Shown: positions 1,875-24,183 of the stretch, piece by piece
Position numbering within the stretch: position 1 is the stretch's first letter
How the letters are laid out: every line of letters starts with the position of its first letter
NCBI GenBank assembly: GCA_046563655.1
Contig: CM102283.1
Span: forward strand, 6,820,001-6,884,000
From: Yuukianura sp. NJ FZ-2021
Taxonomy: Eukaryota
Direction of reading: 5' to 3'
Length of the DNA stretch: 64,000 nt
Program-made: the position numbers and the translations under genes
Notes under the pieces: generated by a model
What the model was told of the DNA's origin: nothing
Databases searched by the model: none
The model's input: the letters and a program-made list of their open reading frames with translations, nothing else

Positions 1875-3235
1875 TTTGTACTCGGAAGAGGCGGACGAGG
1901 GGAGTTCGTTAGGTTCTAATGGGTTTTAGGTTGGTTAGGTTTAGTAGGTTTTGTGTCCAAATGGCTTTTGGCTTGGTCCTAATCCAAATTTTGGCACATG
2001 CTAAAGCTAACAAATGGAACTGGGCTTGAAAAGCCTCTCACTCCAGCTTTTCTCTCGCCTTGGACTTTCTCTTCACGTTCAGTTTTAGTCAGGCGATGCG
2101 ACAGGGACAAACTTTGATGTGTCTTCGACTGTTTCTGGAAGGTCAAGAAAAAAACAAAGGTCAAATGGTTTTTTACGTGATGAACTGCGAAAAAAACAAC
2201 ATGTACATCTCGTGGTTGACTTATCTACAGTTAGGCTGTTAAACTTCAACTTGGAAATGCTTACAAACTTACAATAGAAAGAAAGTAACTTAAAACGCGC
2301 GACTCGTTTAGAATTTGGAACAGGAAATGTCAAAGCCAGAAACACGGAGAATTTGGAGCACAAAGAAACTCCAAGGAGAAAGTTACAAGGCCCTTTTTTG
2401 TGCCAACTTTTTTTCTCAAAACCTTGAAATTCTGCCAAAATCAGCTGTGCATTAGAAAAACAAAACACTTACTTGTTTTATGGCATAAGGATTTCAGCCT
2501 TTCAGCGTCATTTAACTTCAGTCAAACAGTAAATTCCAAATGTTTTCAGTCTTTTTAAAACAACTCTTTGAAAATGTGTTTACAATCACATTTTTTACAA
2601 AGTCAAACTGTCTTGTTCAGACTATTTCAAAACATGTCTCAAGATTTAGGCTAAATACACTCCCTTTTTACTTTTGAAACAAGATTTTCTTTTGGCAAAA
2701 ACTTAAGAAGACAAATGAAGTAAAACTGAATCGGAAAATCGTTTGAAGCACAAAAGCTTTCACTTCTGGACGAAAATCATGATTTATGTAAACAGCCATT
2801 TTGGTTTTCTATTCGATTTTCCTCAGAAAATCAATCACATACCACTTTGGCTGATTCCGAGAAATCGATTATTTGCCAACTCCGGATGTCCATTTTGAAG
2901 TTTCGAAAATCCAAAAACTGAACAACAAAAAGCACTAAAAGTTTTAAACTTTTGATAAAAAGTTTCACTAAAAGTTCAGTCAACTTTCTTCACAGTAAAT
3001 CCAATTCTAACAAACTTTTACAGAAACAGAATTTTTATGTTCAAGAATTCAAAAATCAAGTAAAAATTTCTACTAAACTAAAAAAAATGAAAAGATCGTG
3101 CAGCTTCGTCCACGGCAGAAATCGAACTGAATTGAATTTTAGGTAAAACACGGTACGACTTCTGTTTTAAGAAAATTAGAATTCCAGAAAACGTTCAATA
3201 CTCATCATCATCATTCATCGGAGTCATTTTACGGC

Positions 3236-3267
3236 ATTTACGAATTTACGAATTTACGAATTTACGA
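3236..3267. repeat. Short tandem repeat (ATTTACGA)x4
   Basis: Directly visible: atttacga repeated four times. Confidence 0.85.
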
Positions 3268-5161
3268 CTACTCCCTTGTACTCTATGTCATTTACTGGTC
3301 AATCCACTCCATCTTAATTTCTTCCTTGGACTAGAAGTGTCCAAAGCGTAATGAAACGCAGAATAAAGAAAAATCAAAATTGGCAAGAAAAAAATGTTTA
3401 TGGAAAAACTTTTATCTGGATTGAAAAGCAAATGCCCTTCACATGTTTATTATGCTATGTTTATCATTAGCTTAATTACTGTGTCCAAAAACCAACAATT
3501 TTGTGCCGGGAGAAAGTTAATTTGTAGGTAAAAAGTAAAATTATGCTTCTCTAGTCAAGTGTGGGAAAATCCAGGAGATTTTGAATGGATTTCTAGCGTG
3601 TGAAGTTTTATAGATTGAATTTAGAGATTAATCGAGTACGTTCCTCACCTTGGATTTTTGGATATGCAGGGATTCCAGCATTACAGTGTGCTTCGACACT
3701 CACAGTCTGTGCACTTGAACCAGAAAATTTTCAAGTGTAACTTTGACCTTAAGTTAGTAGGTCACTAGGTCACTTTCACTCTATTCACAAAAGCGGACAA
3801 TGGAGGATATGCGACTATTTCAAAAGTCTAGAAATTTGAAACTGACTAAAATTGCTCTTGTAACACAAAAGTTGTGGAAATTAATGTTGTTGGGGACTGT
3901 GCGTAAAAATAAGAGTAATCGGATGGCCTAAATTCCATTTCTCTTGCTTTGCCAAGCCTTCAAGCACTTTCACTCTCTTGGCATGTCCAAAAAAGTGTTG
4001 TCTGCTGCTGCAAAGTTTCATCTTCATCTTCTGTAGTGTAGAGCACATGCGTTTTAACTTTCACCCAGGAATTGCATGAGACCTGGGATAGGTTAGGTTA
4101 GACCTGGAGAGTTACTTCCGCCAAGGATGTATCCTCTCTCCTGTGTTGCTCAAAATAGCTCTCGTGGAAAGTCTCCTGCTGAGCACTGGGGCGGAGAAAG
4201 CTATTGCGGAAGAGGCTGATTTCGCTAAGATACTTTACCACTACTACTACTAGTACCGTAAAACTTCCAGCACAGACCTATATCCGATTAAAGTCGCTTA
4301 TCTGCTATAACAGACTGAGTGAGATGTAAGGAATCTAAAATTGAATAAATCCCTGCTTTCTAACACAAGCTTGGTCTGGAGGCGGCAAGAATAATTAGAA
4401 GCCCGGGGACCTATTAGAAGTTTTACGGTAAATTCATGGTTCGATGGCATGGAGGACGACGATGGTCGTTGTGAAAATGGAATATCCATTCCCGTCCGCG
4501 ACAGAGACTAAGCTTTCTCTTCCTTTCAATTAAACTTCTCGTTTTTTCCTCAGTTTCAATTACACTTTCTCTCTCAAAATTCAATTATACTTTTCCAACT
4601 TTCGTAAGACTTAGTTTTCGTTATCGTGTAATCTGGAACTTGTAGGAAAGATTTCTTTTTAATACCATGCAAAAAATGGCGATGGCGAAATTTAAAAAAA
4701 TGTATAATTTCGAAAACTTTGTACAGTTGAAATGACTTTCAATTTATAAATCATTTTTACTGGTAGATGAAGCCTTGAAAATCTTAAGAAAACACTTAGA
4801 AAACAGAAGTTTAGATAAAACGAGAACCAAAAAAGTTCTTCTTCTTTTTCAAAATTATTCATGTTTGATTAACCAAAATCCAAACAAGAAAGAAAATTGT
4901 GGAATTGAAACAAAAATGGTAAAGAAGAGACGCGGTGGAGAAAGTTAATACGGAGAAAAGATTTGGATTTTGCTTTCTCTGTTACACTGCCGCCAAATTC
5001 ATATTTTTCTTGAGAAATAAAAATAAAAACATAAATAAATAAAAACTAAAATTTTGAAATTCGGTTTCACATTCGTTTTCGTGTAAGTGGTACTTTGTTT
5101 ATTTTGACATTGATTTTTTTAATTGTCTGTTTACTGATTTATTCTGATTTCTTTTAGGACA

Positions 5162-6111
5162 ATGACACCTCGGTTGATATACCCGTACTTGCGTCATATC
5201 CTCAATTTATCATCGTTATCAGTCAAGTAAGAATGACCAGTTGTCATATTCGGTATTAGTAATCGATTATTCATTCCTGTCGTCACTAATCTTTAACTCT
5301 GTTTGATGGTTTTCGTCTTTAGATCTCATGGTCGAAAGCTAAATTCAACCCCATCAGCGATAATCCAACTGCAGCGAGTCGAACGTGCTCCCAGATTCAG
5401 GAATTACTCTGATGAAGCTGCCGCCGTTTCAAAAGAAGATACAAAACCAGCCGAAGAGCAGCGTGACCCCAAAATCCGTGACCCCACCAAGGAAGTGTCT
5501 GTGGAGACTAGTATGCGATACTTGAAAAGTACTGGTAAGAGGAATAGACCCTAGACAACTATGCATCATGTTAGAAATCGAACGCTTTGAAAATAATTTT
5601 CAACTGATTTGATTTTCAGCATACCGGGACACTTACGGGGGCAACAAGGTTTGGGTCCTTTATCGTCGGAACTTCCCGGGTCAATTTGCGCCCAAGAAGA
5701 CACGAGAAAAGTGCTATGTAAGCCAAGACGTGATTCAATTCTGAAAATACTGCGGACGCTTGAAACGTGTTACCACACAAGTATATTCGTTTGATATTTT
5801 AGATTAATGGGAGGCTGAATACTGGAAACCCTTGTCCAATTTGTCGAGATGAATACCTGGTCCTGGACTACCGGAATGTTGACCTTCTCAAGCAGTTTAT
5901 TTCGCCCTTCAATGGCGCCATTTTGGGATACGACAAAACAGGACTATGCCAGGAGAGGCACTTTAAACTTCTTGTGGAAATTGACAAGGCCAAAGACTAT
6001 GGAACGATTAGTTTTGACGTTCCATTTCGGGAGTTTAATTACGAAGAGTACTATCCAAAGGAGGCACTCCAGAAATTAAGGAGTAATTCAACCAATCCTG
6101 ACGCAAGTTAA
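5162..6111 (+). CDS. mRpS18B: Mitochondrial 28S ribosomal protein S18b
   Basis: Exons 5162-5226, 5323-5534, 5620-5717 and 5803-6111. Protein has VETSMRYLKSTAYRDTYG..VWVLYRRNF..KTREKC..TGNPCPICRD..LDYRNVDLLKQFISP..TGLC, the MRPS18B signature. Confidence 0.93.
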
Positions 6112-6414
6112 TTCACAGTTCCAAAGATTACTAAAAGGAAGTTTTTTGAGTGCAAATATTTCATATGGCAACATAACATACAAAAGTTTGTATTATTTAA
6201 TGTAACTCGATTCTTTTCAGTAACAAAGTATGTTGTGTTTGAACAATTTGACAAGTCAATTTCAAAGTTCGTTTTTTACTTGAAATATGCCGGAATCTTA
6301 GTCAAATGAATTGGTTCTCGGGTAATTCCTTTGCGCGGACGTTGCTATTTATGGTTTCTAGCATAATATGGACGACCACGTTCGTAGGTAAGTTTCACTT
6401 TTCACTATTTTGAC

Positions 6415-7746
6415 ATGTCTATTTTTAAGATTATAACGACTATAACTGTGTTTTTAATTACTTTAGGATGTCTAGTTGAAGAACAATGTGAAGAAGTCAA
6501 AATGGATTCCCAGTATTGTCCGCTCAGGCCTACTTCGTCCTTCCGCATGAATAGAAAGTGGACATTGTCGTACGAAGTTTGTGACTCGGAGATTCTTCCA
6601 ATTTGTGTCACTGCTCCCCGTCGTAAACTAACCGTCACCACAATTAAACCGAAGATAAAGGTTCCTACTACAACCAAAACTACTACTACTACGACTCCTA
6701 AGCCTGTTACCCAAAGCAAAGTAGATCAAGACTGCGAAGAGGTCACAAGTCAATGCGACAATTCCACGACATGGCTAACTTTCAAGACAACAATCGACAT
6801 GGCCAAACTTAAATCTCAAGCACGAAAACAGAAACCTGCAGAAAATGATGAAGGCCCAAAGTGTGAAGAAGTCACAAGCGAATGTGACACGTCCACAACA
6901 TGGCTAACATTCAAGACAACAATTGACATGGCCAGACTTAAATCTCAAGCACGAAAACAGAAGCCTCCAGAAAATGATGAAGGTCAAAAATGTGAAGAGG
7001 TCACAAGCGAATGTGACACGTCAAAAACATGGCTAACTTTCAAGACAACCATTGACATGGCTAAGCTTAAATCTGAAGCTCGCAAGCGGAAGCCTGTCAC
7101 CCGTCCTCCTTTGGTGTCAGAAAAGCCACCAACGGAAGAGGCAACTGAAAGTCAAGAGTGTGAAGAAGCCAGAAGCCGATGTGACATGTCCACGAGATGG
7201 TTAAAATACAAGACAACAATTGACCTTGCATGGCTAAAGTCGAAAGCTCGGAAACCGAAACCAATTGTTACTAAACCTCCGGTTTTATCAGAAACTTCGT
7301 CACAACTTCCGCCGACGAAAGCAACTACAGAGCTACAAAAGCTTGAACCTAAGCCTAACTTGGCGCCGCCGTCGAATTTTAAGGAGCTCCAAGATGTATT
7401 CCGGAATTTCCCTGTGTCCAGAGGGCATTTCGCTGTTCCTGGAGTCCGACAGAACGTTTTCGTCAATCCTGATTCGACTACTAGAGCAAGGACTGGAACT
7501 GACGATGGCCGTCACCAAGCACTCACTGCAGATCATCCACTGGATGTCAATTTATGGAAGGTTCGCAAGACGCTTGCTGATGTTTGGAAGGCAGAGGAGC
7601 GGTTTGAGGTCCTTGCAGCAGCGGCGCAGCAAAAACGACGTCGTATCGAACAAAAAGAAGCTGCTGCACGGCGATTCGCCTCGGGCATGCGCAGACGACA
7701 ACCGGGCGTGAACCTTGAATGGGACTATTTCCATCCCGCGATGTAA
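6415..7746 (+). CDS. Uncharacterised intronless secreted protein (443 aa) with Cys-pair tandem repeats
   Basis: Single ORF with an N-terminal hydrophobic signal-like segment, a Thr-rich linker and four copies of CEE.{4}CD...WL.{2}KTTID.A.LKS.ARK. No recognised family. Confidence 0.8.
   Translation: MSIFKIITTITVFLITLGCLVEEQCEEVKMDSQYCPLRPTSSFRMNRKWTLSYEVCDSEILPICVTAPRRKLTVTTIKPKIKVPTTTKTTTTTTPKPVTQSKVDQDCEEVTSQCDNSTTWLTFKTTIDMAKLKSQARKQKPAENDEGPKCEEVTSECDTSTTWLTFKTTIDMARLKSQARKQKPPENDEGQKCEEVTSECDTSKTWLTFKTTIDMAKLKSEARKRKPVTRPPLVSEKPPTEEATESQECEEARSRCDMSTRWLKYKTTIDLAWLKSKARKPKPIVTKPPVLSETSSQLPPTKATTELQKLEPKPNLAPPSNFKELQDVFRNFPVSRGHFAVPGVRQNVFVNPDSTTRARTGTDDGRHQALTADHPLDVNLWKVRKTLADVWKAEERFEVLAAAAQQKRRRIEQKEAAARRFASGMRRRQPGVNLEWDYFHPAM
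6733..7260 (+). repeat. Coding tandem repeat, 129-bp (43 aa) unit x3 plus a diverged fourth copy
   Basis: First Cys codons at 6733, 6862 and 6991 (period 129), then 7159. Confidence 0.9.
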
Positions 7747-7859
7747 AGGAGATTCCTCCGAGTTGAAATACTATCGCAATCCAGCCGTAAATATTTGCAC
7801 ACGATCCTTACATTTATCTGACTAGACTTTTATTAAATCAATTCAAAACCAATTAAATT

Positions 7860-8129
7860 AAAAAAAAGTAGCACAAGACCGAACCTGTGGTCGACAGCCA
7901 GTTCAGGGTCATCCTTTTTCCATTCGCCACTGTCCTTCCTCAACTAGCCCAACTAGTCCAGCATCCAAATAATAGGTAGAAGACCTATCAGGCCTGTCAA
8001 AGATAGACTGTGGCTTTAAATAGTAAAGGAGGTCGTTTACCGGTAACAACACAACAGACCCAGGCAGGATTCGAACCCGCATCACCACTGTAAACCGGTG
8101 TGCTTTAGATCCACTAGGACACTTGCCCC
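7860..8129 (-). mobile_element. tRNA-derived SINE-like element (head, ~190-bp body, T-run)
   Basis: Minus-strand head 8129-8056 has an A-box-like TCCTAGTGG and a B-box GGTTCGAATCC with a paired T-arm. The acceptor stem is broken. A unique body follows, ending in a T-run at ~7867-7860. Confidence 0.55.
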
Positions 8130-8322
8130 ATACTTAAGATTTTTGGTTCAATAATACTATTTCGAGCATTTTTGTTACGAAATATTTATTTATTTCCCCA
8201 TGCCCGTAATGTTAAGCTAGTAAATATTTCCAGCTTTTTCAGTAAATATTGCATTTATTTAAATATTTCGCTGGTTTTTAGTAAATATTTTTTGCAACCC
8301 TGATTATCACTAATAGACACGA

Positions 8323-8396
8323 AGACCCAGGCAGGATTCGAACCTGCGTCGCATCTGTTTACCGGTGTGCTCTATTCCACTTGGGCAAATTGCCCC
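8323..8396 (-). mobile_element. Second tRNA-derived SINE head / tRNA pseudogene
   Basis: GGGCAATTTGCCCAAGTGG...GCAGGTTCGAATCCTGCCTGGGTCT is homologous to the 8056-8129 copy. The T-arm is perfect; anticodon and acceptor stems are unpaired. Confidence 0.6.
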
Positions 8397-8954
8397 CACG
8401 TGATAGTTTGCCTTCAAGAGATCCACTATTAAGGCTAAAGAAAGATACATCTCGCGTCAGATGAGCTTATTTACATCTTATTCGATTCTGACTAAAATCG
8501 GAATCAGTAAATTCCGATTTGACGTTGAATTGAAAAACAATTACTTATGCAGTCCAATTTCAGAATGGTACACACAAAGATTAGTTGATTCGAATTTTTC
8601 CAACTTCGCTCTTGGTTTTTGTCTTGAACGAAAGACGAACAAAACAAGAAAACAGATTAGGCGAAAATGGTCCCGTATGAGCCAATCGTAGTGCACGCGT
8701 GTTGATGAAGTCTTTTGGTTTCCGTAGCGGGAGAAAAAAATTTAAAACCATCATATGGTTGAGGAGGACCGCGATAGAGTTTTTTTTTATTATTGTTTTG
8801 GTTAAAATAAAAATTTCAAACTGAACAATTACTAATTGATATTGATAATTAATTACTATTTTCATAATTTGCTTTCTGTAATTAGAGGAAAATGATTTTA
8901 CGATCTGTATCATCCGTCTTTTTTAACAATTCATATGCTAGAACATCGAACTGG

Positions 8955-9736
8955 ATGCTGAAAAACTCAAGGTAAAAGTTTTCATTATTTAATTGTTCTG
9001 ACTTTTTTTTGAATCGTTACTCAACTTGTGATGTTTTTACTTTTAGTCGAACGTGGCTGGACGTACCGCTAAAAGCAATAGGATGTAGAACGTTTACGAC
9101 GATTCCCGAGAATACTGGTAACATTGGAAGTGGACCTGCTACTGGCACGACGACTGGAATAGACAAAGCAAGTACTTCAACTACCGTTAGTAAATTCCTC
9201 AGTGACGCAAATTCAACCCTCGCTTCAGAACGGAGGCTTGCTACCGATGACAGTATGTAGAAAATATTTGAATCAAAGTTATGTTTGTGGTTGCATCAAA
9301 CTTAAATTCCGGATTTATCATAATGATTTCAGTGACATCTCAAGACGCTGTACTTCCGGATAAATTGTACAAGACAATTGAATTGGAATTGCTCGCATAT
9401 GAACCAGCAGTGTTAGACAGCTACGAATGGTTCCTGGTCACCGCTGCGTCCCATTTGGGCATTGAAGTGGGAAGAGTCTGGGCACCGCGGAAATCCGACA
9501 AGTATCGATTTCCACTTCTCAAGTCTGCTCATGTCCACAAGAAACATAGAGTCCACTACGAAATCAGAACTTATCACAAGTTTATCACTCTGAAGAAACT
9601 TACTGGCTCCACTGCTTCAACATATTTGGAATACATCCAGCGAAATATTCCTGAAGGCATTGGAATGAAAGTATCCCGATTAGAAGTTCTTCCTAAACCA
9701 TCTTACGTGAGTGCATTATCAAGTTCCGTTAGTTAA
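8955..9736 (+). CDS. mRpS10: Mitochondrial 28S ribosomal protein S10
   Basis: Exons 8955-8971, 9047-9252 and 9333-9736. Protein has DKLYKTIELEL.AYEPAVLDSYEWF...LLKSAHVHKKHRVHYEIRT...LTGSTASTYLEYIQRNIPEG. Confidence 0.93.
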
Positions 9737-10091
9737 ATTATCGTTCTTTGTCTCCTCCGACCCGTCACGTAATGTTTTTCAAGATTAATAAAGTTCTGCT
9801 TGCACAGGGTTCAATCTGTTTGTTCTTGAACTTTTCAAGGACCTAGGCGAAGGACAAGCTATTTGTCTTTCATATTTGTTTAGGGTCCTATAAAATTGTC
9901 TTTCCCTTGACTCATATTGTTTTGGTTCCCATTTCACATGTGTTGTTGACATGGATGAGTTAATTTTAGTTGAACTTCATCTTTCTACTTTTCAAGGCCG
10001 AGCTAGGGATAAAACCCAACTGATTTTGTTTCCGAAATCTCAGTTAGAATTTTTTGAAAAACGGAGACAGTCAGACAAAGTTAAGCTGAAA

Positions 10092-10735
10092 ATGGTTTGT
10101 CACAAAATGATTGGTTTGATGGTTATCATCTGTTTAGCAACTGTTGTAGATGCATTCTCCGTCAGTGGTGAGTCACTCAAATTTTTTTAAATGATCATTT
10201 TTAAAAATTGTCTTTAGAAAAATGATTAATCCTGTTTAATTTTGAGGTTGGAATGGAGGTTCACAATTTCAATCAATTCAGCCTGTAACGAGGTCACAAG
10301 GAAGCGGACGTACTGGTGCCCAATGGGGAAGACCAATTCAGAAACCCATTATCCTTCCATGTGATGGATCGCCTGAGATCACAAGGGCTTGTGACACTTT
10401 CTGCAAGTCGATTCGAGCTGCGGAAGGTGCTTGTGTACCAGTCCAATTAACTTGTGGATGTACTGGAGGAAGTTTGGCAGAACCAGCTCCTGCCAATACT
10501 GGTTAGTTCGTGAAAGTTTAACCGTACTCCGCGCTTTAAACAAAGTACCTCAAATTAAAAAGTATTTTCTATGGTATTTCTTTTAGGAGCTGTTTCACCT
10601 CAAGCTCCACCGGAAAACGGAATTCAGATTGTTCCAGCTCCGGATTTGTCTCAAACTCCGGTAAATCCTGCAACTGAAACAGTTCGTGCTGAACATACCC
10701 GAAAGAGAAGACATTCGCCGTCCTGGAGAGTTTGA
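10092..10735 (+). CDS. Secreted CS-alpha-beta (invertebrate defensin-like) precursor with N- and C-terminal extensions
   Basis: Exons 10092-10167, 10247-10501 and 10587-10735 with phase-1 introns. Encodes a signal peptide, then CDGSPEITRACDTFCKSIRAAEGACVPVQLTCGC (C-x9-C-x3-C-x9-C-x6-C-x-C), then a Pro-rich tail ending RKRRHSPSWRV. Not recovered by the ORF track. Confidence 0.75.
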
Positions 10736-11143
10736 AAATCCTTACTCTGTTACGCCGAGTAACTTACTCTGCATAACTTTCTCCTTTTGATACCTTTCGT
10801 GTCCATGTAACTTTATTAACCTTTGACCTTGTCTATACTTTTCGTTGAGTTTCATGCCTCAGGACACGGGAAGACAATAGAGATAGCATATTTCGTTTTT
10901 CATTTCTGTAACAGAAATTCTGTTCATTTTACAGTTCATGTAATGTCAAGTACCAATCCGAGAAATTGTTCAAATTAGATCACTTATCCCACTTTAGAAT
11001 TTGATTAGGATTAACGTTATCTTCACGAGTGCAAAATTAGTCAATTGGAAATTAATGAGGCAATTCAAAAATAAAATTTAAGTTTAAATTGAGTTGGAAA
11101 TTCCGAACCACAAAGTTTTTCAGTTTTTTTTGAAACAGTCGCA

Positions 11144-13347
11144 ATGATTAGTCTACTTATAGCGATTTTTATTCTTTCCGTTTGCTTCATTTACTTGCGT
11201 GTAAGAAGAGATCCAGATGGACCTCCAGGTAATTGCAAAATTTTATTAGTTTTGACCTACACAAGGTCAAGGCCAAATTGAAAATTTAATTTTTAATTTT
11301 TGAAATTTAGGACCGCCACGGCTACCGATTTTGGGAAACTTACACCAAATGGCACAAGCGCATCCATTCGGCTACAGAGCTTTTCATGAGCTTTCTAAAA
11401 AGTACGGTGACATCATGAGCGTCAAAGTTGGATTTCAGGAAATGGGTAAGCCGAACTTAATTTCTTTTGACATAGTGCATATCGCTTCAAAAAACTTAAC
11501 GTTTGTTCTGTTTTGTACATACGCAGTCGTCCTGTCCTCCTTTGATGTCATGAGGGATCTACTTGCCAAGGAAGAAATGAGCGGCAGACTGTGGAACGGA
11601 TTCTTGGTGGACAGGTCCATGGGCCAGGAAATGGGTAACATGAAATTATTTTGAACTTTTTGAAAAAATGAAATGATTTATGTAATTTATGACTTTTGTA
11701 GGTGTGGCTTTCGCCAGTGGCAAAAAGCAAGAGCAGCTCAAGATTTTTGTGATCAAGGCCCTGAGTGAATTCGGATTTGGGAAACAGTCGTTCATGGAGT
11801 CCACGGTTTTATCTGAACTGGAGTCTGTTAAAGCTCGATTCCGAAGTTTGAGTCAGAAGAATGGCGGCGTGGTGTACATGAAGCGCCACTTTCAACTCAG
11901 TTTGCTCAATGTTCTCTGGGGCATGATGGCTGGAATTCGGTATGACTATGACGATCCCAAGCTAGCCATAATCATCGACACAAGTTCAGCGTGGTTTGAA
12001 ACTGGAAACTTTGGAGCTGGAATTGTCACTGCATATCCGTTTCTAAGATTCATTTTCAAGGACTGGACTGGCTACTACGTTCAGGAAAAAGGAAACAAAG
12101 TTGTCCACACTTTTCTCAGGGTATTAAGTTTAAACAAGATTTTGAACAAAATGAACTTTCACACTTTGCTTTTTAGAGATAAAAATGAAATCCGATTTCG
12201 ATTTTAACATTTTTATTTTTTGAAAATTAGGAGCTCGTAGATGAACATCGGAAGCAGGAGAGCTACAAATTGGAGCCACAGTGCTTCATCGATGCTTTCC
12301 TGAAAGAAATTGACAAGAACAAAGGAAATCAAAACACGCCTTTTACTGGTACTTATAAAAAAAAATATGAACTTTTTTTCTTAACAGAAAGCTTATGCAT
12401 GAAATGTTTTATGATTTTTCATTTGTTTTATGATTTCAGATGAAGAATTCATGATTACGTGCTACGACATGTTCCAAGCTGGATTTGAAACTACGAGCAA
12501 CACAATGGCCTTTGCAGTGTTGCTCATGCTCAGAAATCCTGAAGCTCAAAAGAAAGTTCAGGCTGAACTTGACGAAGTTTTTCCAGCAGGACAATCGCCT
12601 CTTCTGGAAGATAAGGACAAGTAAGCACAATTGATCAGCCAGCATTTGAAAAGTATTCCATTAGTAAAAGTATTTCCAGTTAGTATATTTTTTCTGCATG
12701 TTGTTTTGTAAATGTTGTTTTAGATTATCGTACACTCGGGCAACTGTCCTCGAAGTTTTTCGCATGAGCAATATTCTTCCAATCTCCGGTCCAAGAAAAA
12801 TTATGGAGGACTTCACATACAGAGGCTACAAATTCAAAAAAGTTAGAATCTCATGGAAAATTTTACATTAGCAAAACGTTTTTCTCAATGTTTTAAATTA
12901 ATTAACCTTGAAATGAATTGCCATAGGGTACTGCCGTGAGCTTCAACACTTACAGTGCTATGCGTGACGTAAAAATTTGGGGTGATCCGGACAACTTCCG
13001 TCCAGAACGATTCCTTACTGATGATGGCAAGGGCCTCAACGGTCTTGAGAAATACATCTACATTGTCTTTGGGCACGGTAAGGTTTCAAAATTCAGAAAA
13101 ATTAAGCTTGAGGTTCTTGATTACTTGCTTATTTAGCTAACAATGTTACAATCTGTTGACATTAGGGCGGCGAAGATGTATGGGAGAGACACTGGCACAA
13201 ACTACTGTCTGGATGTACTTTACAACCCTATTACACAACTTCTCCTTTGAGCAAGTTCCTGGAGAACCTTTGCCAACAATGGATCCAATTTTCAGCATTA
13301 TTCTTTCCCCTACACCCTATAACGTTCTTGTCAAATGTAGAAAATAG
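11144..13347 (+). CDS. Cytochrome P450, CYP2 clan (CYP15/303/305-like)
   Basis: Nine exons (11144-11228, 11311-11445, 11527-11634, 11702-12120, 12231-12348, 12440-12620, 12724-12841, 12927-13057, 13166-13347). Has an N-terminal anchor, PPGPPRLPILGNL, I-helix AGFETT, ExxR (EVFR), PERF and heme motif FGHGRRRCMGE. Confidence 0.93.
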
Positions 13348-13692
13348 AGATTAATCAATTAGCTAATCAACGCAATTAATTAAATTCTTTGAAAAAATCG
13401 TACTGTCAACCTCCTTGGTCCTTTACGAAAACTTTTTACTCTAATACGTTGTTATTCTATAAAAGTCAGCACATTGAAGTTGTGCAGAGGAGAGAATGTT
13501 ACAGGAAACAGGAATGAAGTCGACATCGGCTAAAATATTGTTTTTTTCTGGACGTACTGGATAACTGGAATCATAAATTGGAATGCACTATAAAGCGAGT
13601 ATTTGAATGCTTTTGTCTAAAATTAAAAAGCTGGAAGAAGAAGATTCGTTCATGAATGTTTGAGTGAAGAGATGTTGATGCTATGATTAATC

Positions 13693-14562
13693 CTAAAGCT
13701 CTACTGCTGTACGTGAAGACGTTGGTCTAGTTTTCAAACTCATGAACTGCATTCCAATGGCCGCTGAACTGAGGAAAAAGAACTTCTTGTGGTACATTTG
13801 TCTCGTTTCAAATCCTTTTCGATCCAGGAGGTCACGAGCCCTTGAGTGACATTCAGTAATGACAAGTTCAATGGCAACAAAACTTCTGGAATTGCAGAAT
13901 TTGATCACAGTGTCCATTAATTTAGAACCAACGCCTTGATCTTGCCACTCTTTCTTCACGGCTAAACGTCGTACCCAAGCAATCACAGCCGAGTTCTTGT
14001 CACGGGTAACCCCAACAGTACCGATGATTTCTCGTTGTTTAACTGCACCGTAAGTGTTGTTCCAGTCCATTTGTTCAAATTCGGCAAAGCTAACGAAGGC
14101 GATTTGCTTGGGTGCTCCGATTTCAGGTTTCGTTGGAATTGGTCCGTAGGCTTCGGCAACAAAGAAACAAGTTTTGTTGCTAGAAAGATATGTGGATAAA
14201 ATGTCTTTGATGTCGGCAATGTGATGGCGAGCTCTGTAGTAATGGCTGCCAAAAATCACAGCGTAGAATACGACGGTTATTAGAGGAATGGCTGTCAAGG
14301 TCCAGTAAAGTGGGACTCCGAGAAAGATGAACATTATAGCCGCAGTAGAAACGATCGCTTGGAAATATATTTCTCGCATCAAAGCTCGGACAAAGAAGGT
14401 CCCAACCGTTGACATTGTATTCCGGTACAGTATGTCCTGAACGGCTTCGTTGTCTTGTGGTCGAAATGGTCGTATCACGACGAGTGTAGGAGCGGAGTAC
14501 ATTTTGATTAGCTGCTCGAAAAATCTCCGGTTTGCCTCGTTACGTCTAAAACATTGGGTCAT
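13693..14562 (-). CDS. GNAT N-acetyltransferase, NAT8/camello-like (start may be the ATG at 14502)
   Basis: Intronless ORF with VVIRPF.PQD..AV, an internal hydrophobic segment, CFFVAE, IIGTVGV, the acetyl-CoA motif RRLAVKKEWQDQGVGSKL, and ARDLL.RKGF. Confidence 0.85.
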   Translation of the reverse strand: MTQCFRRNEANRRFFEQLIKMYSAPTLVVIRPFRPQDNEAVQDILYRNTMSTVGTFFVRALMREIYFQAIVSTAAIMFIFLGVPLYWTLTAIPLITVVFYAVIFGSHYYRARHHIADIKDILSTYLSSNKTCFFVAEAYGPIPTKPEIGAPKQIAFVSFAEFEQMDWNNTYGAVKQREIIGTVGVTRDKNSAVIAWVRRLAVKKEWQDQGVGSKLMDTVIKFCNSRSFVAIELVITECHSRARDLLDRKGFETRQMYHKKFFFLSSAAIGMQFMSLKTRPTSSRTAVEL

Positions 14563-14833
14563 TATCAGTTTTCCTTCCAGGGACACTTCTTTAGCTTTTT
14601 TCGTTAATATTTTTCTTACTGTTACCTTTGACCAACACCCGCGGCGACCGGGACTAATGCGACCTTTATGTACTTGTCCAGTCCACCTTCTCTCAGAGTT
14701 TGGGTCCGGTAAATTAGTATCTAATTGGTATCCTTGCTGTCAGCCAGCACGGTGACGAAGAAGGTATCGGTTAAGAATTACCTAACTTACCTACCCGAAT
14801 TGTGCTATTAAAATCTTAAGCAGGCACTAATAA

Positions 14834-15512
14834 ATTGAATTCAACTCTAATTCTCAAATTTTTATTCGCGATTGTTTTGACACAGTTGCATGGGGTTTGG
14901 CGCTTGAGATAAGAGTCTCATGTTCCAAGTTTCAGGCTCTCGACAAACAACAAACACAAAAAGAGGAACCTGTTGCACTTTAATCTTCTAATCCAGTCGA
15001 AATTGTTATTTTTGAAGGTAAGATTTCATTCTTGTCTTTCTTTTGTTTACCATTTGGTTAGTTAATGTAATCCACTTCCCTATTTATGGTTTTACAGTTA
15101 TCGGTCTGGTGCTCGTCAGTTAAAAAAACACGGAGTTCGGGTTTGGAGTAAAATGTGGAGGAGTCTCAACATCTGATTGCCGGGGTCACCATCACCACCG
15201 ATCTGCCCAGAACTCTGTCTCCTTCCGAAAATTCCGAGTTGGAATACCGATTTTGTGCCTTACAATTAGATGATGCTGCTTCTAGGAGGGAATACATGGA
15301 ACTTAGCGTTTTCAGTAATACTCATCACATCGTTGATTCGTCTCTATGAAGAGGCCGGTGCGACCGACTATGATACTGGAAATGACAATTGCAGACGAAG
15401 GATCTCCAACGGGACACAAACCGGCTACGAATTAGCGAACAGCTATAGGACTTGTTTCGGTGTCAACCTAACGTATAACTCGAGTACATCCGAACTGGTG
15501 GATCCCAGCAAA
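14834..15512 (+). repeat. Direct duplicate (copy 1) of the smoothened 5' region, 679 bp
   Basis: Aligns base for base with 20386-21064 (offset 5552). The few substitutions seen are all in the non-coding part. Confidence 0.97.
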
Positions 15513-15560
15513 ATAATTACAATGAACCTTATAATGAAATTACTTTGTGGTTTTGAATGA
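15270..15560 (+). pseudogene. Truncated smoothened duplicate (signal peptide plus start of the CRD, 96-aa ORF)
   Basis: First 81 codons are identical to smo exon 1. Identity stops 18 nt before the smo splice donor, and the ORF reads on into unrelated sequence to a TGA. Confidence 0.8.
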
Positions 15561-15566
15561 TTTCAG

Positions 15567-16244
15567 TTTTGCTTGGCCTTCGTTTTCCTTGCGTTGACGT
15601 CAATATTTGCGTACATCAGTACGGACTGTGCCAATTCTGCCTACGTCGAAGTGAGTGGAAACGTCTCATAAATCGTACCTCCTACCTCTGTTTTATTTTT
15701 AGAAGCGTTCTCTCGGGAAAAAAAAATCATTTTCTTTTTCGTTTTCAATTGTTTTTGAATTGACAGGGAATGGCTGGATTTCAAGTACTTCGAAGGAACT
15801 GCCATCTCGAAAGTTGTGATACGACACAAGAGCGGAACTTTGTAAGAATTTTAGTAATCAATCACCAACTTCAATTTCAGCCTAAACTCTGAACTTTCCG
15901 TGGAATTGGAATTTTGAACTCCTTTTAATGATATTTTCCAGATCCATTCGCTGATTGTGAGCTACGCGCCGAATAATCCAATCCAAATTTCAGCCAATGG
16001 TTACTCTGCGGTCAATCGAAGTTTGATTTCGGTCGTAAGTTTAAACCGAACATTTTTTGTCCCATTATTGTACGAATTGAAGCCTATGATTATGATTAGT
16101 AATTAACTGAGTTCCTATTTGTAGGTGATGGTGAATGTGATGGGCTATCTGGTTGCTGCCTACACGTTGAAGCTTGACACGACTCAGTTCTGGACGTATT
16201 ATCGATATGCCAACTTGTATCACAACTCTACCTGTGCCACATGA
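15567..16244 (+). pseudogene. 3' remnant (last four exons) of a gustatory receptor / 7TM chemoreceptor gene
   Basis: Phase-0 exons 15567-15650, 15767-15841, 15942-16034 and 16125-16244 are open and read FCLAFVFLALTSIFAYISTDCANSAYVE/GMAGF...ERNF/IHSLIVSYAPNNPIQISANGYSAVNRSLISV/VMVNVMGYLVAAYTLK... C-terminal phase-0 introns and the I.A.G...VNRSL..TM7 motif are GR-superfamily hallmarks. No 5' exons are visible. Confidence 0.75.
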
Positions 16245-18805
16245 ATTTAGACCAAAATGAAAAAACAGTAAGATTTATTTGTCTTCTCTTATAATTCCAC
16301 AATTTGGTTCTCCTTGTTTCGTCGTTCGCAGGTTGTGTTCAAGGGGTTTGAAGTTTTAAAAATAGGGAGGAGTGCCTCCAATTGATTGTTGAGATGGTCA
16401 TACCCTCCCACAAAACTTGCCCGCCTATAACCTTGTCATAATCGTCTCATGTTGGACTTGGGGAACTGGACGGAGTGGCCTTGAATTGTACATACTTGTT
16501 GTGTTGACTGTTGATGGATTGTTGAGTTGGTTTGTGCATGAGATAAATGATAAATGCAGCATGGATATGGGGTCCTTCCGTATCCCTTTACCACCACCCA
16601 CTATCCCAACACAATTCTCAGCCACCGCCACCATGTCATTTTCTAAGAAAGCGGCGTGGTGTTTGGATGAACTGTTACGTCCAATCTGAAACTAGTGCCA
16701 ATTAATTTAGTTTCATCGTTTCGTGCACGAGCAAGAACATGAATTCTTCACCAAACTTAATTGAAGCTTGTTTAATCAAGCCGGAAGTACTCAACGGAGT
16801 CTTAAACCCTCATGGGTTAACACAACAGGATGGCTTTGTCTTGTTTCAACGATCTCTCATGGATCCACCCCGGCAGACAACCGTGTCTCTGTACAAGTCC
16901 AGGGTCAACTCGAGCGGAACGGGTATTCAGTCACACAAAATTAACCCATAACACAACAATTGTTCCTCGTTGAACCTTAAGGGAGTTTGCGTTATACATA
17001 CATAAATTATAGAACTTATAGAAAGTATGGAATTTATCACTTTTCAAGCTTTTCGGATTTACCAAATTTATAAACAGAATATAAGCTGTATGTAAATGAG
17101 AAAAGTATGGAAAGTGATGTCACAGATTTGAAATCCACCAATCACGGGTTGCTGGGGTAGAAATAAGGGGCGGGAGTTACTAAATTCTTTTAATGATTCG
17201 CAACGCAAAGTCCCTATTACTTTCCTCTTTTTTTTCACCAATGTGTTTCTTGTGTAGAAATGGAGATAAAGGAAATGCTTTTCCGGAGCGTACTTTCACT
17301 TCGCGACGGTGAAGGAACAAGATTGACGCTGAGCAAGAACGTTACAACGCAAGAAGATGAGCTTATCCTGATTCAGTACGGTGTAGATCTTACCTCAGGA
17401 AATAGTTTAGAGGTCGTGCTCAACAAGTTCAGCATCAATTTTGGCAACAGAGCAGGTAAAACTGGAATTCGTTCATGATTTACAACACAATGTGAGTTGT
17501 TCCGGTTTTAACGATTACCAAAAAACTGTTTGATAGCATTGACGAGAGTGCTGAAGGACTTGACAGATTGGGCTGTAATGGGCTACCTGCCTCCGGTTGT
17601 AGTAAGTTGGAATTTGCTTGGTTTGGTTGCAGTCACCTGGAATTGCATCCGTTGTAACCACCAACAAAATGGTGCTGAATTATTTAGTATTTCAATGGGG
17701 GTAAACTCGTTTCAGTTGCCAGCCTTCTTTCGCGAGGTGAGATGCATTTGAGGCGCTTTGGTGCGGTGATGGGGTAGCATTTCCTGTACCTTTTTTTTCT
17801 AACTTTTTGATCCAGAACTAACCTTGAATACTTCGATCTTAAGTTATGCTAATGAAGCTAGCTTTTGTAGATAGGTAAATGCCGTTGGGTAGCCATAGGT
17901 CCGGAGGTATACGTAGACTCCCTGCTACGCCAAACCGTTTCTTTTATTACAAAACCAAATTGTTATTTTCTTTAATTTCTTTTTTTTCGTTTCAACAGAG
18001 CCACAACCGTTTATAGATTTAGTTTCTTCGTATCAGAATCCCGAATTTTCTTTAGTTATAATATTTCTGGTTTTATGAAGGTTTTAAAAAAAGTGACCTG
18101 CTTCGTTTTAAAAAGAGTTCATTTTTATAATATTAGTTCGTTTTGAAATTCTACCAACTGAAACCTCGATTCTCTTCTGCCCAACTCCACTTACTCTATT
18201 TCAAAGGTTATGTCTATGTGTTAAATTGTTGGTTTTGAAATCGCTGTCCGTATCTGTCGATCGTTTTACGGTGAAGATGTGTTTTAACGATCCTCATTGT
18301 ACTCGCACAGTATAGCCACCCGGGCCCTCTTGTGTGTGGCATGTGGTTACAATAGGGGACTACACGTAGCCACTCAAACTTAAAAAAGCGGGAACATAAG
18401 TAGCCGCTGAGCATGGCCACCCATTGTAATCACAAAGTGGCTACACCGTGCGGCAACAATAGTGACGGTGAAACCTTAACCCAACCCATTTTATTTAGCA
18501 ATCATCCCCTCCCCAGCTCTCTCCTCTTTTTAAGTTCTTTTAGCTACCTAATCTTAAAAACTTTCTGCAATCTGCATATGAATCTACTGAATGTCAAAGG
18601 TCAGCTGGCCACTTTGCTGCTTTTTGATCTTCTGTGGTTACTTGAGAGCAGCACTTTTGCATTTCTTATTTCGCACAATCTCTCTCCACGGAATCGGGGT
18701 TCCGAAAGACGAGACGATTACTAATTAATTTAAGTGACTTTGAGGTTTACTTAATTACTTGTTAAGGAGTCCCAACCAAGTTTTTCGCTCACTTTTCTGG
18801 GGAAC

Positions 18806-19993
18806 ATGAATTCGTCGAAGCAAATCTTGATCTACGGGGGGAAGGGCGCGTTGGGATCTGCTCTCGTCACGTACTTCAAGGCGAAGGAATTCCTTACCAT
18901 CAGTGTGGACTTCGCTAAGAACGATGACGCTGATCACAATGTCATTCTTCAACCACACCTAGCACTAGAGGATCAGGTAAGCAACATTTAATTAAATTAA
19001 TTATAGCTGTTAAATTAACTTAAATTAGTCGTAGATACTCTAGCAAGATTGTAGGGGCTACTGGAGATAATCTTCGATAACGATTTGGGGGTGGATGGAT
19101 GGGGAACTAGAGTATCGTCGTTGACATAATATCGGGTTTCACCGTACAGTTTCAGTGTTTTTTTTGTCATTTCAGGCGACGTTGGTGAGTAGCAGCATTC
19201 CAGTGGGGACGTCTTTGGATATAATTGTTTGTGTCGCTGGAGGCTGGGCAGGTGATCTTACGTTTCCTCAAATCAACTAATGAATCAGCCTACCCTATCA
19301 GTTAATTAATATAACACAACACTTTCTGTTGTACTGATTACTGAAAGGTGGCAACGTTGGATCAGCTGATTTCGTGAAGAATTGCGACTTGATGCTTCAA
19401 CAAAGCGTTTGGACTTCATACATTGCTTCCAGCTTGGCTCCGACTCTACTCAAGGAGCACGGAGTATTGGTCCTCACTGGAGCTCAACTGGCTCTCAAAC
19501 CAACTCCAGGAATGATCGGTTATGGAGCGGCCAAAGTAATCCACCAAATAACTCATCAACATTACTTACACATTATCGTCTGATTAAGTAATTGGTTAAC
19601 TGAATTAAGTAATTGATTGATTAATTGAATTCTATAGGCAGCTGTTCATCAATTGGTCAAGTCACTGGGATGTCCAGCAGGAGGGTTGCCAACTGGAGCC
19701 ACTGCTTATGGAATTCTGCCGGTCACTTTGGATACTCCGATGAACCGAAAGTGGATGAAACAGGATGGGACTTGGACTCCGTTGGAACATGTCGCTGAGT
19801 AAGTTCAATTGGCTTACTAAATTTACAACTAAATTTACTTATCTACTAATTAGTTGTTTAAAAGTAGTAACTTGGACTCTAATGTTTTAGAATTGTGGAT
19901 GGCTGGTTGAACAAGGCAGAGTTGCATCCGAATGGAAGCTTGATTCAACTAATCACGAAAGACGGAAAAACGACTCAAGTCGTCGCTGAATAG
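18806..19993 (+). CDS. QDPR: Dihydropteridine reductase
   Basis: Five exons (~18806-18976, 19176-19251, 19348-19535, 19639-19798, 19891-19993). Protein has [44 protein letters not shown] and [14 protein letters not shown]. Confidence 0.96.
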
Positions 19994-20385
19994 AAAACGA
20001 ATCAAAAACGAATCTACAAAATCCAATAATGGCCAAACGACCCGTGGGACCAATTTAGTCAACTTTAGACTTGAATTCTTGAAATTAAATAATTAAGTGA
20101 GAGCTTAATTAATTAACTAATTAATTTGTGGGGCGAGTGGTGGTGCTAAAGTATAGAAGTCCTCGCTAATTGGACAGTACTTACCTGGCCTGCTTTGCTA
20201 CTTATTTCTAAATGATTCTAAAATATAATCATTTCTGCTTAGGTTATAAGTTGCGTATACTTTGTGTCATTTAAGCCAAGAAAAATATGTTAATCAAATT
20301 CAATAAACTAAAACTTGTATGCAACTATCGACCGGTTTTGGATCTTTGGTAAGTTTTTCACTATTGAACTTTGAATTTTTCAATT

Positions 20386-21064
20386 ATTGAATTAAACTCT
20401 AATTCTCAAATTTTTATTCGCGATTGTTTTGACACAGTTGCATGGGGTTTGGCGCTTGAGATAAGAGTCTCATGTTCCAAGTTTCAGGCTCTCGACAAAC
20501 AACAAACACAGAAAGAGGAACCTGTTGCACTTTAATCTTCTAATCCAGTCGAAATTGTTATTTTTGAAGGTAAGATTTCATTCTTGTCTTTCTTTTGTTT
20601 ACCATTTGGTTAGTTAATGTAATCCACTTCCCTATTTATGGTTTTACAGTTATCGGTCTGGTGCTCGTGAGTTGGTCAAACACGGAGTTCGGGTTTGGAG
20701 TAAAATGTGGAGGAGTCTCAACATCTGATTGCCGGGGTCACCATCACCACCGATCTGCCCAGAACTCTGTCTCCTTCCGAAAATTCCGAGTTGGAATACC
20801 GATTTTGTGCCTTACAATTAGATGATGCTGCTTCTAGGAGGGAATACATGGAACTTAGCGTTTTCAGTAATACTCATCACATCGTTGATTCGTCTCTATG
20901 AAGAGGCCGGTGCGACCGACTATGATACTGGAAATGACAATTGCAGACGAAGGATCTCCAACGGGACACAAACCGGCTACGAATTAGCGAACAGCTATAG
21001 GACTTGTTTCGGTGTCAACCTAACGTATAACTCGAGTACATCCGAACTGGTGGATCCCAGCAAA
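20386..21064 (+). repeat. Direct duplicate (copy 2), part of the intact smo gene
   Basis: Near-identical to 14834-15512. Confidence 0.97.
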
Positions 21065-24000
21065 TCCCTCCGTCAGCTTCACGTAAATTCATCATTATAA
21101 CACTTTACTATAAACATATATATTAGCAAATCATATCAAGTATGTAATTCTCACTTTTTCTTCATTTTCAGAGCGACCTGTCTCAATGGGAAGTGTTCAA
21201 AAGGTCACCGAAATGCTGGACAGTTTTGCAACCTCTTTTATGTGCCACATATAAACCGAAATACCACGACGGACTAATCGAGTTACCATCACAAGAACTG
21301 TGTAAAGTCGCTCGGAGCCATTGTCGTCTCATTGTGGAACGAGTTTGGACGAAGTGGCCTGACTTCCTAAGATGCGAAAACCAAAGTAGCTACCCGCCGA
21401 ACTGCAAGGTTAGCTAGCATTAGACTATTAAAAAAAACCCATCCATCTCCTCCTCACAAAACTTAGGATCTAGAAAACGGTCCGAGTATAAATTAGTCTT
21501 TATCTGTGTTCTAAAACATACTGATGCTTAGGTGTAATGCTTTCTAACAGAACAGCGAAATTAGGGAGATGCAAACTACTTTCAGCATTGGAGAATGCAT
21601 GGATCCAATGATTCACGTGAATGATTCGACAAGTTACTACGAGGGCTTCGAAGGCTGCGGTATTCGGTGTCAGGATCCAAAGTTTACTAACGAAGAACAT
21701 ACGAACATGAGCAAGCACATATTCTGTGGATCATTCTTCTTGTTCATTGTTTCCACGTTTATTATCGTAAGTAATTATGAAACAACCTCAAAAACGATTT
21801 TGCACGCCAATTTTTACGAGTTTGACTTGAATTTTTAGTGCACGTATTGCTTGGACTGGAAATCTTCGAGAGGGCTGCCATCTGAAATCATCTTTTATGT
21901 TATCCTCTGCTTTGCTGTAGCAAACTTGGGATGGATGTTGCAGTTCTGGCCAAATGCTAAGACTGAAATCGTGTGTCGTCGTGACGGAACAATACAACGA
22001 AGCGAGTAAGATTTCACTCAAGAACTAGCTAATTCTGCAATTTAATTTTGTTTGATTTCAAATTATGAACTGTTTGGATCATTTCAGATTGGACCAAAAC
22101 TTCTTCTGTCTCGCCGTGTTTTCTTTGGTGTACTTTGGATCTATGACAGCTATGGGTTGGCTTGCTGTATTTGCGTTTGTGTGGAATCTTACTTGCAATG
22201 CCGTTGGTGTAATCCGAGCCCGTGTTGAGAACCAGGCAGCTTACTTCCACTGTCTGATTTGGATTCTTTCAGCGTTTCTCACCATTTTAAGTATTTCACT
22301 GGGAAAAGTGAGTTATGATTCAAGAGATTGTTAAATCTTTTGCTTAAACTAGTGCTGATACTTTCCAGGTAGATGGAAACAGCATGAGCGGCGTTTGTTT
22401 CATTGGATACAAAAACCCAAGTGCCCGAATTGGTTTGGTGGTGGTTCCACTCCTGCTTTCATCGGTCGTTACCTTCTTCTACCTCAGTAAGGGATTGTAT
22501 CGCCTTCATGTTGTTCAAAAATCTGCAGACTTGATTCCGGCTTATGGAAGAAAGCATATCCGAACAGTGTTCCGGCGAGCAGTGATATTCATCAGCCTTG
22601 CAGTGACCATAATTTTATGTTTCTTGGCTACTGAAATCTATCAACTAATTATGTGGCCAGTTTGGAGTCAATCGCTTCAGGATTTTCTCATGTAAGTAAT
22701 TTCCATACCAAACCGTGCAAGGTAAGCTCAATTATTTTTCAGTGCGTTGATAAATTTTTTTTGCGTTTTGTTTAGTTGCAACATGAAACGGACAGCGGAC
22801 ATGGATGACTGCAACATGACCAATCCACCGTCGTTAGGGTTAATCGGACTTAACATTTTCTTATTCCATGCTGGTGGATTCCTTGTTTGCAGTTGGGCTT
22901 GTACTCGAGCTACTATTGACACTTGGAAGAGAAAATTCCCAAGGTATCAAATTAAACTTGCAATTAATAATCTACATTAACAGAATTTTTATGTTAGAAG
23001 TGATCTCATATTCCATGTTTAGATGCTTTGGAACGGCCAAAACCAAAGACCAACGTCAGCGCGTTCTGAAACACCGACTTGTTGCACAAGCATACGAAAA
23101 GAAGAAGAGGTTGAAGATTCCGAGAAACGGAAGCATAAGCCTGACAATTCAAAGTATACATAGAGATCCTATCGGTCTCAATCGCTTATTGGATCCCATT
23201 CAACTCTGCCAGGAATCCAATACTCCAATGAATCAGACAGATGAAGGGGAAGAAGTGAGCAGTGATTGGGTGGGAAATCTTCCGCATCTTCTTGAACGCA
23301 GAAATGCCCTGACAATCCAGGATTCATCGAATAATTCCGTATCTGAGGATGTACAACGTGTTGGTGAAGGCGGGAGACGGCCTTCACACGATTCAAATTC
23401 CGAATTGGACAATAACAAAAAGTAAGTTTGATAATCTACATCAATAGTTCCAATTTGCTACAATTAGCAATTGTCTTCCTTAAGGCGATCCAGACTCAGC
23501 AAGTTGAAGCAGAAACTGGGCAGTAGAAATGGATTTGGAAGAAAAGGACGCCGCGGCAGTATTACATCGTTTGACAGTTCTGAGTTGGGGAGCAAGCAGT
23601 ATCAAAGTTCAAACTCAGAGTTGGATAAAGCTGTTCCTAAATCGTAAGCGATTTCCAGCAAACTTCTCTTAATTGATTTGAAGATTATGTGGTTTAGCAG
23701 TATAACGCAAACGTTTGTTTTGTTGTCTCTCTTCATAGGAAGTCCGGCTTGACCAAAGCTAAGGACAAGTTAGGAAGACGCAACGGGATTGGTTGGCGAG
23801 GGAGATTTGGAAGCCTGTCGTCTCTAGAAAGCAACGGAACAGCAATTCCATTACCGACAATCTCATCCAAGAAGAAAGTTCCTATAAGGACAAAAGTTGT
23901 CAAAGAATCCTGTATCCAGACCAGTTTAGAGCTTTTGCCCTTGGGATCAACAGCTCCAAATCTATCAACTACGAGAATGATGGACAAAGGAATGCAAACC

Positions 24001-24183
24001 AGCATTCAATCACTTTGTCTAAAAGATTTTGGAACTCAAACACGGAAGTCTGCTACTAAAAAGCAGAAGAAACATCGCTCAGATGAAAATCAAACAGAAA
24101 ACAATGAGACTGAAATCCATCCTGCATGCAATCCGTCCGCTCAAGGTCTTGACCCAGTTCTTCAGCTACTTACTCCAGGATAA
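20822..24183 (+). CDS. smo: Smoothened (Hedgehog pathway class F GPCR)
   Basis: About ten exons. CRD PKCWTVLQPLLCA.Y.P, PSQELC, WPDFLRC; linker YEGFEGCGIRCQDP; AYFH..IW; VDGNSMSGVCFIGYKN; SW..TRATIDTWKR; KH.LVAQAY; HRDPIGL; basic, Ser-rich C-tail. Confidence 0.95.

Follow-up and report, generated by a model that had tools for sequence, protein, structure and literature searches.

Can the copied 5′ end of one gene and the surviving 3′ exons of another, brought together on one strand, amount to a new gene? This question is raised by a locus in Yuukianura sp. NJ FZ-2021 (positions 14834 to 16244 of a window of 64,000 nt, the window being the whole stretch of DNA analyzed here, positions 6,820,001 to 6,884,000 of contig CM102283.1 in assembly GCA_046563655.1). 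A first-pass annotation, made from the letters of this DNA, had described it as a possible young chimeric gene in which the N-terminus of Smoothened is joined to the C-terminus of a gustatory receptor (GR). The reading that we favor, with a confidence just above even, is that of a young and probably non-functional relic of a rearrangement, consisting of a truncated Smoothened duplicate and the decapitated tail of another gene, probably of the GR type. The locus would be a candidate chimera, that is, raw material for a chimeric gene and not an established one.

The Smoothened duplicate and its parent

When the region 14700-16400 was compared with the whole window by blastn, the sole non-self match paired positions 14834-15512 with positions 20386-21064, both on the plus strand, at 98.97% identity over 679 bp. 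We refer to the former segment as copy A and to the latter, which is located 5.5 kb downstream within an intact Smoothened gene, as copy B. Blastn, alignment and coordinates agree with the earlier description in that copy A ends (at 15512) 54 nt upstream of an acceptor, TTTCAG, with its AG at 15565-15566. In a pairwise alignment that included 54-108 nt of extra flank, identity dropped abruptly at both borders of the copy. A gene-conversion tract within an older duplicate was considered as well and was rejected, as no residual similarity extends past either border.

Copy A comprises upstream sequence, the 5′ untranslated region (5′UTR) with a putative intron, and the first 243 nt of coding exon 1. 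Seven positions distinguish the two copies (14842, 14959, 15117 and 15122-15125), all of which precede the ATG at 15270, and in the coding part (15270-15512) none of the 243 positions differs. Five of the seven differences fall inside one 9-nt patch, so that about three to four mutational events would account for all of them. With so few events, and none in the 243 coding nucleotides, the duplication should therefore be very recent; judged by its divergence, it is very young.

The putative 5′UTR intron of copy A (15018..15097, plus strand, GTAAGA ... TTTTACAG) was recognized by splice consensus only and is identical in the parent. The sole clustered difference between the copies (15117-15125 versus 20669-20677) hits a donor-like hexamer, which reads GTGAGT in copy B, whereas copy A has GTCAGT and then a run of A; the ATG of the parent at 20822 comes shortly after the end of an acceptor-like TTACAATTAG. 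From these signals, the parent may have a second 5′UTR intron that is no longer spliceable in copy A.

The open reading frame (ORF) of copy A (15270..15560, plus strand, 96 codons in the ORF list) is the same as the parental ORF up to the break. It opens with the Smoothened start codon and encodes a hydrophobic stretch at the N-terminus, together with the first two cysteines ahead of the Fz domain; beyond the break, the frame continues through 15 foreign codons to a TGA at 15558-15560. Copy A is about 99% identical to the 5′ end of its parent, a class F receptor, but it is unlike a Smoothened paralogue. It retains 81 of the 87 codons of Smoothened exon 1 and no complete domain, and a Pfam search with its 96 aa yielded zero matches, which makes it a gene fragment.

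The parental Smoothened coding region extends over 20822..24180 on the plus strand, with the exons of the seven-transmembrane part reaching to approximately 22977 and the C-terminal exons following (the 3′ limit is approximate). Exon 1 (20822-21082, 87 codons) ends at a phase-0 donor, CAC/GTAAAT, at 21083, and an 89-nt intron separates it from exon 2, which starts at 21172 and carries the Fz domain. In a Pfam scan of 39 ORFs, the Fz domain was located at 21148-21414 (E 5.9e-09), and three further exons between 22056 and 22977 matched the Frizzled/Smoothened membrane region (E 7.4e-14, 9.1e-15 and 5.1e-04). One 115-aa exon of the parent matched 21 distinct PDB sequences at E<=0.001, 13 of them Smoothened (best 8.5e-12) and 8 Frizzled (best 3.3e-05). 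Because these matches favor Smoothened over Frizzled, the parent can be addressed as Smoothened, in line with the first-pass annotation and with the Pfam results. Situated 18 nt past the duplication break, the donor of the parent (21083) was left out of copy A.

The four-exon tail and its likely family

Downstream of copy A, four open exons in phase 0 had been noted, and their AG/GT borders, their junctions between codons and their total of 123 codons all confirm this structure. All four are on the plus strand. Exon 1′ (15567..15650, 28 codons) encodes a hydrophobic helix resembling transmembrane helix 6 (TM6), with hydropathy >1.2 at tail residues 1-23; exon 2 (15767..15841, 25 codons) encodes a polar loop and has a coding log-odds value of 0.26 bit/codon; exon 3 (15942..16034, 31 codons) encodes the beginning of the last helix, and exon 4 (16125..16244, coding to 16241), which is in the ORF list and has an AG before it, encodes 39 codons followed by TGA. 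The three introns (15651-15766, 15842-15941 and 16035-16124) are 116, 100 and 90 nt long, all in phase 0, with 66-70% A+T. The 54 nt at 15513-15566, between the end of copy A and exon 1′, are read here as what is left of an intron that preceded exon 1′ in the tail gene.

The codon usage of the tail is coding-like. Its log-odds value of 0.219 bit/codon compares with 0.263 +/- 0.198 for pieces of the training exons, a positive set that depends on the training material itself (26 long ORFs of the window with 4541 codons), and with -0.023 +/- 0.153 for 234 short non-genic ORFs outside the long ORFs; just 0.1% of random null sets of four such ORFs reached the value of the tail (p ~0.001). The encoded peptide has two hydrophobic helices (residues 1-23 and ~75-102) with a loop of ~50 residues between them and a short C-terminus. 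We conclude that the tail is, or until very recently was, a genuine coding region for the terminal part of a membrane protein.

Within the window, no 5′ exons of the tail gene appear to be in view, as the first-pass annotation had stated for a GR. The three plus-strand frames of positions 1-14834, read through stops, gave only P450, S18 and S10 families in Pfam, in a scan that is insensitive for divergent receptors. The one long plus-strand ORF there that these families leave unexplained, at 6388-7743, is a Cys/Thr-rich repeat protein. A search for the parental GR, which the annotation had recommended, came back empty in the window, where tblastn with the spliced tail returned neither a paralogue nor a parental copy and the best foreign match had E = 1.9. 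Directly upstream of copy A there is no space for receptor 5′ exons, because a minus-strand GNAT acetyltransferase gene abuts it (13696..14505 within the ORF 13696-14739; Pfam Acetyltransf_1 7.2e-12; the start codon was read from the ORF and is approximate).

What points to a GR is the gene structure. Phase-0 C-terminal introns are described for the GR genes of Daphnia pulex (PMC2680840) and likewise of insects (PMC9998090), and the motif of transmembrane helix 7 (TM7) in GRs is TYhhhhhQF (PMC2680840, PMC9998090). In nearly all Daphnia GRs this motif is placed six codons past the last phase-0 intron (PMC2680840), and variant TM7 motifs are described for some Grs (PMC9998090). The tail likewise has three phase-0 C-terminal introns, a feature that is not specific alone. 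Six codons into exon 4, it reads GYLVAAYTL where GRs have TYhhhhhQF; the Y and the five hydrophobic positions fit, and a further QF follows 7 residues on. The register relative to the phase-0 intron at 16035-16124, with six codons and then the Y-containing core, is therefore that of the GRs if the degenerate motif is accepted. With the Daphnia pulex Grs (PMC2680840) and the Drosophila Grs/Grls (PMC9998090), the tail shares the six-codon register, the Y with five hydrophobic residues, the two terminal helices and the short C-terminus. It differs from them in that only ~123 of some 400 residues survive, with two of the helices that in a complete GR, of about 350-450 aa, would number seven. Fragmentary GR pseudogenes are common and have been reported in Daphnia pulex (PMC2680840).

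Probable origin of the junction, possible use of the weak donor and rival readings

How would the two parts have come together? In the reading as a relic, a 679-bp 5′ segment of Smoothened was copied in front of the four final exons of another gene, at a distance of 54 nt, taking with it nearly all the intergenic DNA past the poly(A) signal of a dihydropteridine reductase gene, the 5′UTR and the greater part of exon 1. The other gene, which encoded a multi-pass membrane protein, most probably one of the GR superfamily, would have lost its 5′ exons, so that TM6, the intracellular loop and TM7 would survive. The junction 15512/15513 is exactly that expected from the tandem duplication of a 5552-bp unit, 15513-21064, and it sets the 5′ part of the downstream gene against the 3′ part of the upstream one, as many chimeric genes of Drosophila do. 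Of the upstream unit, however, no more than the final 679 bp remain. Such a tandem duplication may have been followed by a second deletion that took the rest of the unit together with the receptor 5′ exons, or a single template-switch event during replication may have copied the 679 bp and skipped the 5′ exons. A transposon origin was also considered and found no support, with no inverted repeats or other repeat families around the junctions.

Since the AATAAA of the reductase gene (20303) is only ~80 nt upstream of the start of the duplicated segment, copy A holds nearly all the intergenic DNA open to a Smoothened promoter. Transcription of copy A is plausible from this arrangement, and the copied promoter may drive it onward into the tail. 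The default message would keep the 69-nt spacer, because the authentic exon-1 donor was not copied, and its ORF would end at the TGA at 15558 after 96 codons. Introns downstream of a stop codon are the usual trigger for nonsense-mediated decay, and as the three tail introns lie downstream of this stop, the default message would be prone to such decay. Only through a weak GT at 15498 would the in-frame fusion of 199 codons be reached.

This weak phase-0 donor, CTG/GTGGAT at 15497/15498, had been put forward in the first-pass annotation together with a 69-nt intron and a 199-aa fusion, and the sequence agrees in each respect. The proposed cryptic intron (15498..15566, plus strand, CTG/GTGGAT ... 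TTTCAG, with length and ends taken from the sequence) would join the 76 codons from the ATG at 15270 to 15497 with the 123 tail codons in frame. Against an unsupervised donor matrix, for which the ends of 132 ORFs with at least 80 aa supplied 75 sites and which is noisy, GT 15498 scores 4.62 bits, corresponding to the 86th percentile of 7467 GT sites and to approximately the 11th percentile of the 75 putative donors. Its bases at +4 and +5 do not match the consensus, and in the modelled exon of the parent this GT goes unused. The donor of the parent (21083) reaches 7.30 bits, and the three donors of the tail, GAA/GTGAGT, TTT/GTAAGA and GTC/GTAAGT, score 8.36, 3.03 and 6.71 bits; two other in-frame donors are weaker than GT 15498, namely TCA/GTAATA at 15315 (2.98 bits) and GGT/GTCAAC at 15462 (1.08 bits). 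Loss of the real donor could activate GT 15498. At the level of sequence, the locus thus presents what is expected of a fusion gene, parts of two different genes that are adjacent on the same strand and joinable in frame through a weak donor. The 3′ exons of GR genes are modular, with alternative long first exons spliced to shared short final exons (PMC6175461), and this modularity would make their capture by a foreign first exon mechanistically easy.

A number of observations weigh against the relic of a probable GR. The copy A ORF and exon 1′ share one frame with a single TGA between them, GT 15498 ranks first among the 13 GT sites of the copy A ORF, and the candidate 69-nt intron is typical in size, with 80-116 nt in five other measured introns. 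At ~0.5-1% divergence, a dead gene would be expected to keep its reading frame and splice sites unbroken across 123 codons just as a live one would, so that their intactness does not speak for a relic. The first 800 nt past the tail stop contain neither AATAAA nor ATTAAA. The T, Q and F of TYhhhhhQF are absent from the tail, so the motif taken strictly is missing. At E<=10, the Pfam profile 7tm_7 matched none of five single-exon ORFs and neither of two read-throughs (100 and 227 aa, with X at stops), which is a weak test with such short fragments, and the other Pfam rows for the tail were UBA_At5g58720 and TPR_17 only, at chance level and under their cut-offs. A phmmer search of PDB with exon 3, exon 4 and the 100-aa read-through gave 0 matches at E<=10; in a word-indexed protein search with a 62-aa tail ORF, none of 23 candidates held up, and an exhaustive HMMER search of 1.84 billion protein representatives with the 227-aa read-through gave 0 matches at E<=0.001. 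The ESM Atlas returned no usable match for exon 4, and in metagenome contigs the 62-aa ORF gave 593 pattern matches, 0 of which were confirmed, while an exact 24-mer of exon 1′ gave 0 matches. We regard these blanks as weak evidence, because two control queries, the Smoothened parent's own N-terminus and a 452-aa ORF of the window, likewise found no relatives, as in a lineage poorly represented in databases, and because the tail queries were exons of 28-39 aa. The first-pass interpretation as a whole holds in part, in that its structural points all stand, but its GR label is not shown: the 7tm_7 check with single exons and read-throughs failed, and the phases and positions of the introns together with the partial TM7 motif speak for it. 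From this gene structure we consider the tail probably, if far from certainly, of GR origin; as the strict TM7 motif is missing, it is not filed as a GR, and it differs from the GRs in lacking the T, Q and F, the 7tm_7 profile and any other sequence match.

It is correspondingly doubtful, though a good deal less so than the alternatives that follow, that the tail represents the 3′ part of a different, unrecognised gene for a membrane protein of two or more passes, with the intron phases and the single tyrosine being coincidental; this likelihood was estimated separately from those of a relic, a chimera, an artefact and an intact gene. All homology tests being blank would fit such an origin, as would the presence of just one of the four specified residues of TYhhhhhQF and the fact that phase 0 is the commonest intron phase, three in a row not being rare, but the Y and five hydrophobic residues stand exactly six codons past the last phase-0 intron, as in nearly all Daphnia GRs (PMC2680840), the two helices, ~50-residue loop and short C-terminus agree with a GR, and the blanks lose weight with the equally blank 452-aa ORF and parent N-terminus. 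The tail might also still belong to an intact gene with 5′ exons far upstream or beyond the window, copy A being an insertion in a long intron. The acceptor at 15566 is intact and GR loci can splice distant first exons to shared 3′ exons (PMC6175461), but the 15.5 kb upstream hold five unrelated genes on both strands without a 7tm_7 signal, and the introns measured here span 80-116 nt, which makes an intact gene very improbable. Quite unlikely, too, is an assembly artefact or mis-joined haplotype, in which the 679-bp repeat and the junction 15512/15513 would not be one molecule. Two nearly identical repeats at a distance of 5.5 kb are just the setting in which mis-joins classically arise; however, the copies differ at seven positions including a 5-base patch and are thus not one sequence used twice, and unique, gene-bearing sequence flanks both junctions in a window without N.

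A working young chimeric gene, driven by the copied Smoothened promoter and spliced from the cryptic donor at 15498 into a 199-aa protein, is in our judgement unlikely, if slightly less so than an artefact. Its product would fuse the Smoothened signal-peptide region and 50-odd extracellular residues to TM6, loop and TM7 of a GR. Cleavage of the signal peptide would place the N-terminus outside, TM6 running out-to-in and TM7 in-to-out as in native GRs, and such a mini-subunit could join full-length GRs in one assembly and thereby modulate or poison their function. The in-frame fusion across a 69-nt intron, the rank of GT 15498 within the ORF, the intact and coding-like tail exons and a promoter that is probably inside the copy, whose start is ~80 nt past the neighbour's AATAAA, would all suit a working gene. 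So would the precedent of human CHRFAM7A (PMC7949125), a partial duplication of CHRNA7 (exons 5-10) fused to FAM7A; the product of this channel-subunit duplicate regulates the alpha7 channel in a dominant negative manner. Against it count the off-consensus and, in the parent's exon as modelled, unused donor; the intactness of the tail, which at ~0.5-1% divergence carries no selection signal; the presence of 2 of the ~10 cysteines of the Smoothened cysteine-rich domain, which would leave unpaired cysteines; and the fact that both the GR identity and the topology are likewise suppositions. That the locus is a newborn, perhaps still polymorphic gene whose 199-aa two-pass mini-subunit, built on the pore and anchor exons of a decapitated GR and present where Smoothened is expressed, modulates GR channels as an arthropod counterpart of CHRFAM7A would be an improbable extension of this scenario. 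We therefore keep to the relic of a duplicated Smoothened 5′ end and a headless tail as the favored, if narrowly favored, account.

Neighbouring genes and what the locus may mean

The window has 39% G+C, zero N and short introns of the GT-AG type. Between the tail and Smoothened lies the dihydropteridine reductase (QDPR) gene on the plus strand, with several short exons at 18755..19990 (limits approximate); its region 19338-19580 matched seven dihydropteridine reductase sequences in PDB by phmmer (best 4e-20). A six-frame Pfam search of 16245-20386 found zero families, in a scan insensitive enough to miss the reductase gene as well. The ~2.5 kb from the tail stop to the reductase gene (16245-18700) contain several ORFs of 80-106 codons, again with zero Pfam families. 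On the plus strand at 6388-7743, a 452-codon ORF encodes an apparent secreted protein with four Cys-containing repeats of ~45 residues and Thr/Pro-rich linkers. This Cys/Thr-rich repeat protein lacks hydrophobic helices except at its N-terminus, has no Pfam family and found zero relatives in a search of 5.8 billion clusters. The remaining genes of the Pfam survey encode ribosomal S18 and S10 family proteins, a cytochrome P450, a RING-finger protein (minus strand) and a diacylglycerol kinase theta-like protein with C1, RA, RBD_DGKtheta and DAGK_acc domains, at positions 5803-6108, 9272-9733, 11304-13600, 29089-29505 and 34705-38279.

In the arrangement of its parts, the locus resembles chimeric genes of Drosophila that arose by partial or tandem duplication, such as the X-linked testes chimeric gene (PMC1463047), in that a recent duplication has brought the 5′ part and promoter of one gene next to the 3′ exons of its neighbour. 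It is unlike them in that the authentic donor has been lost and that only 679 bp of the upstream unit are present, so that a second or a template-switch event is needed. Reportedly, jingwei and Sdic are further chimeric genes of Drosophila. If the locus were productive, its closest functional analogue would be CHRFAM7A (PMC7949125), with which it has in common a foreign 5′ end on those C-terminal exons of a multimeric ion-channel subunit that carry the pore, and which may serve as a model for a functional version of the locus. The two differ in that the families are unrelated and that the function of CHRFAM7A has been shown experimentally, whereas the present locus is known from sequence alone.

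If the locus is not transcribed, it would be no more than what segmental rearrangement ordinarily leaves behind, and would illustrate on a small scale how a GR gene dies. Should the junction be real and transcribed, it would be a newly born chimeric gene, caught before its sequence had diverged by more than ~1%. Since the two parents, or what is left of them, can still be read and the authentic donor has only just been lost, it would then offer a natural test of rescue by a cryptic donor, and it would show whether unrelated promoters can capture the modular phase-0 C-terminal exons of chemoreceptors.

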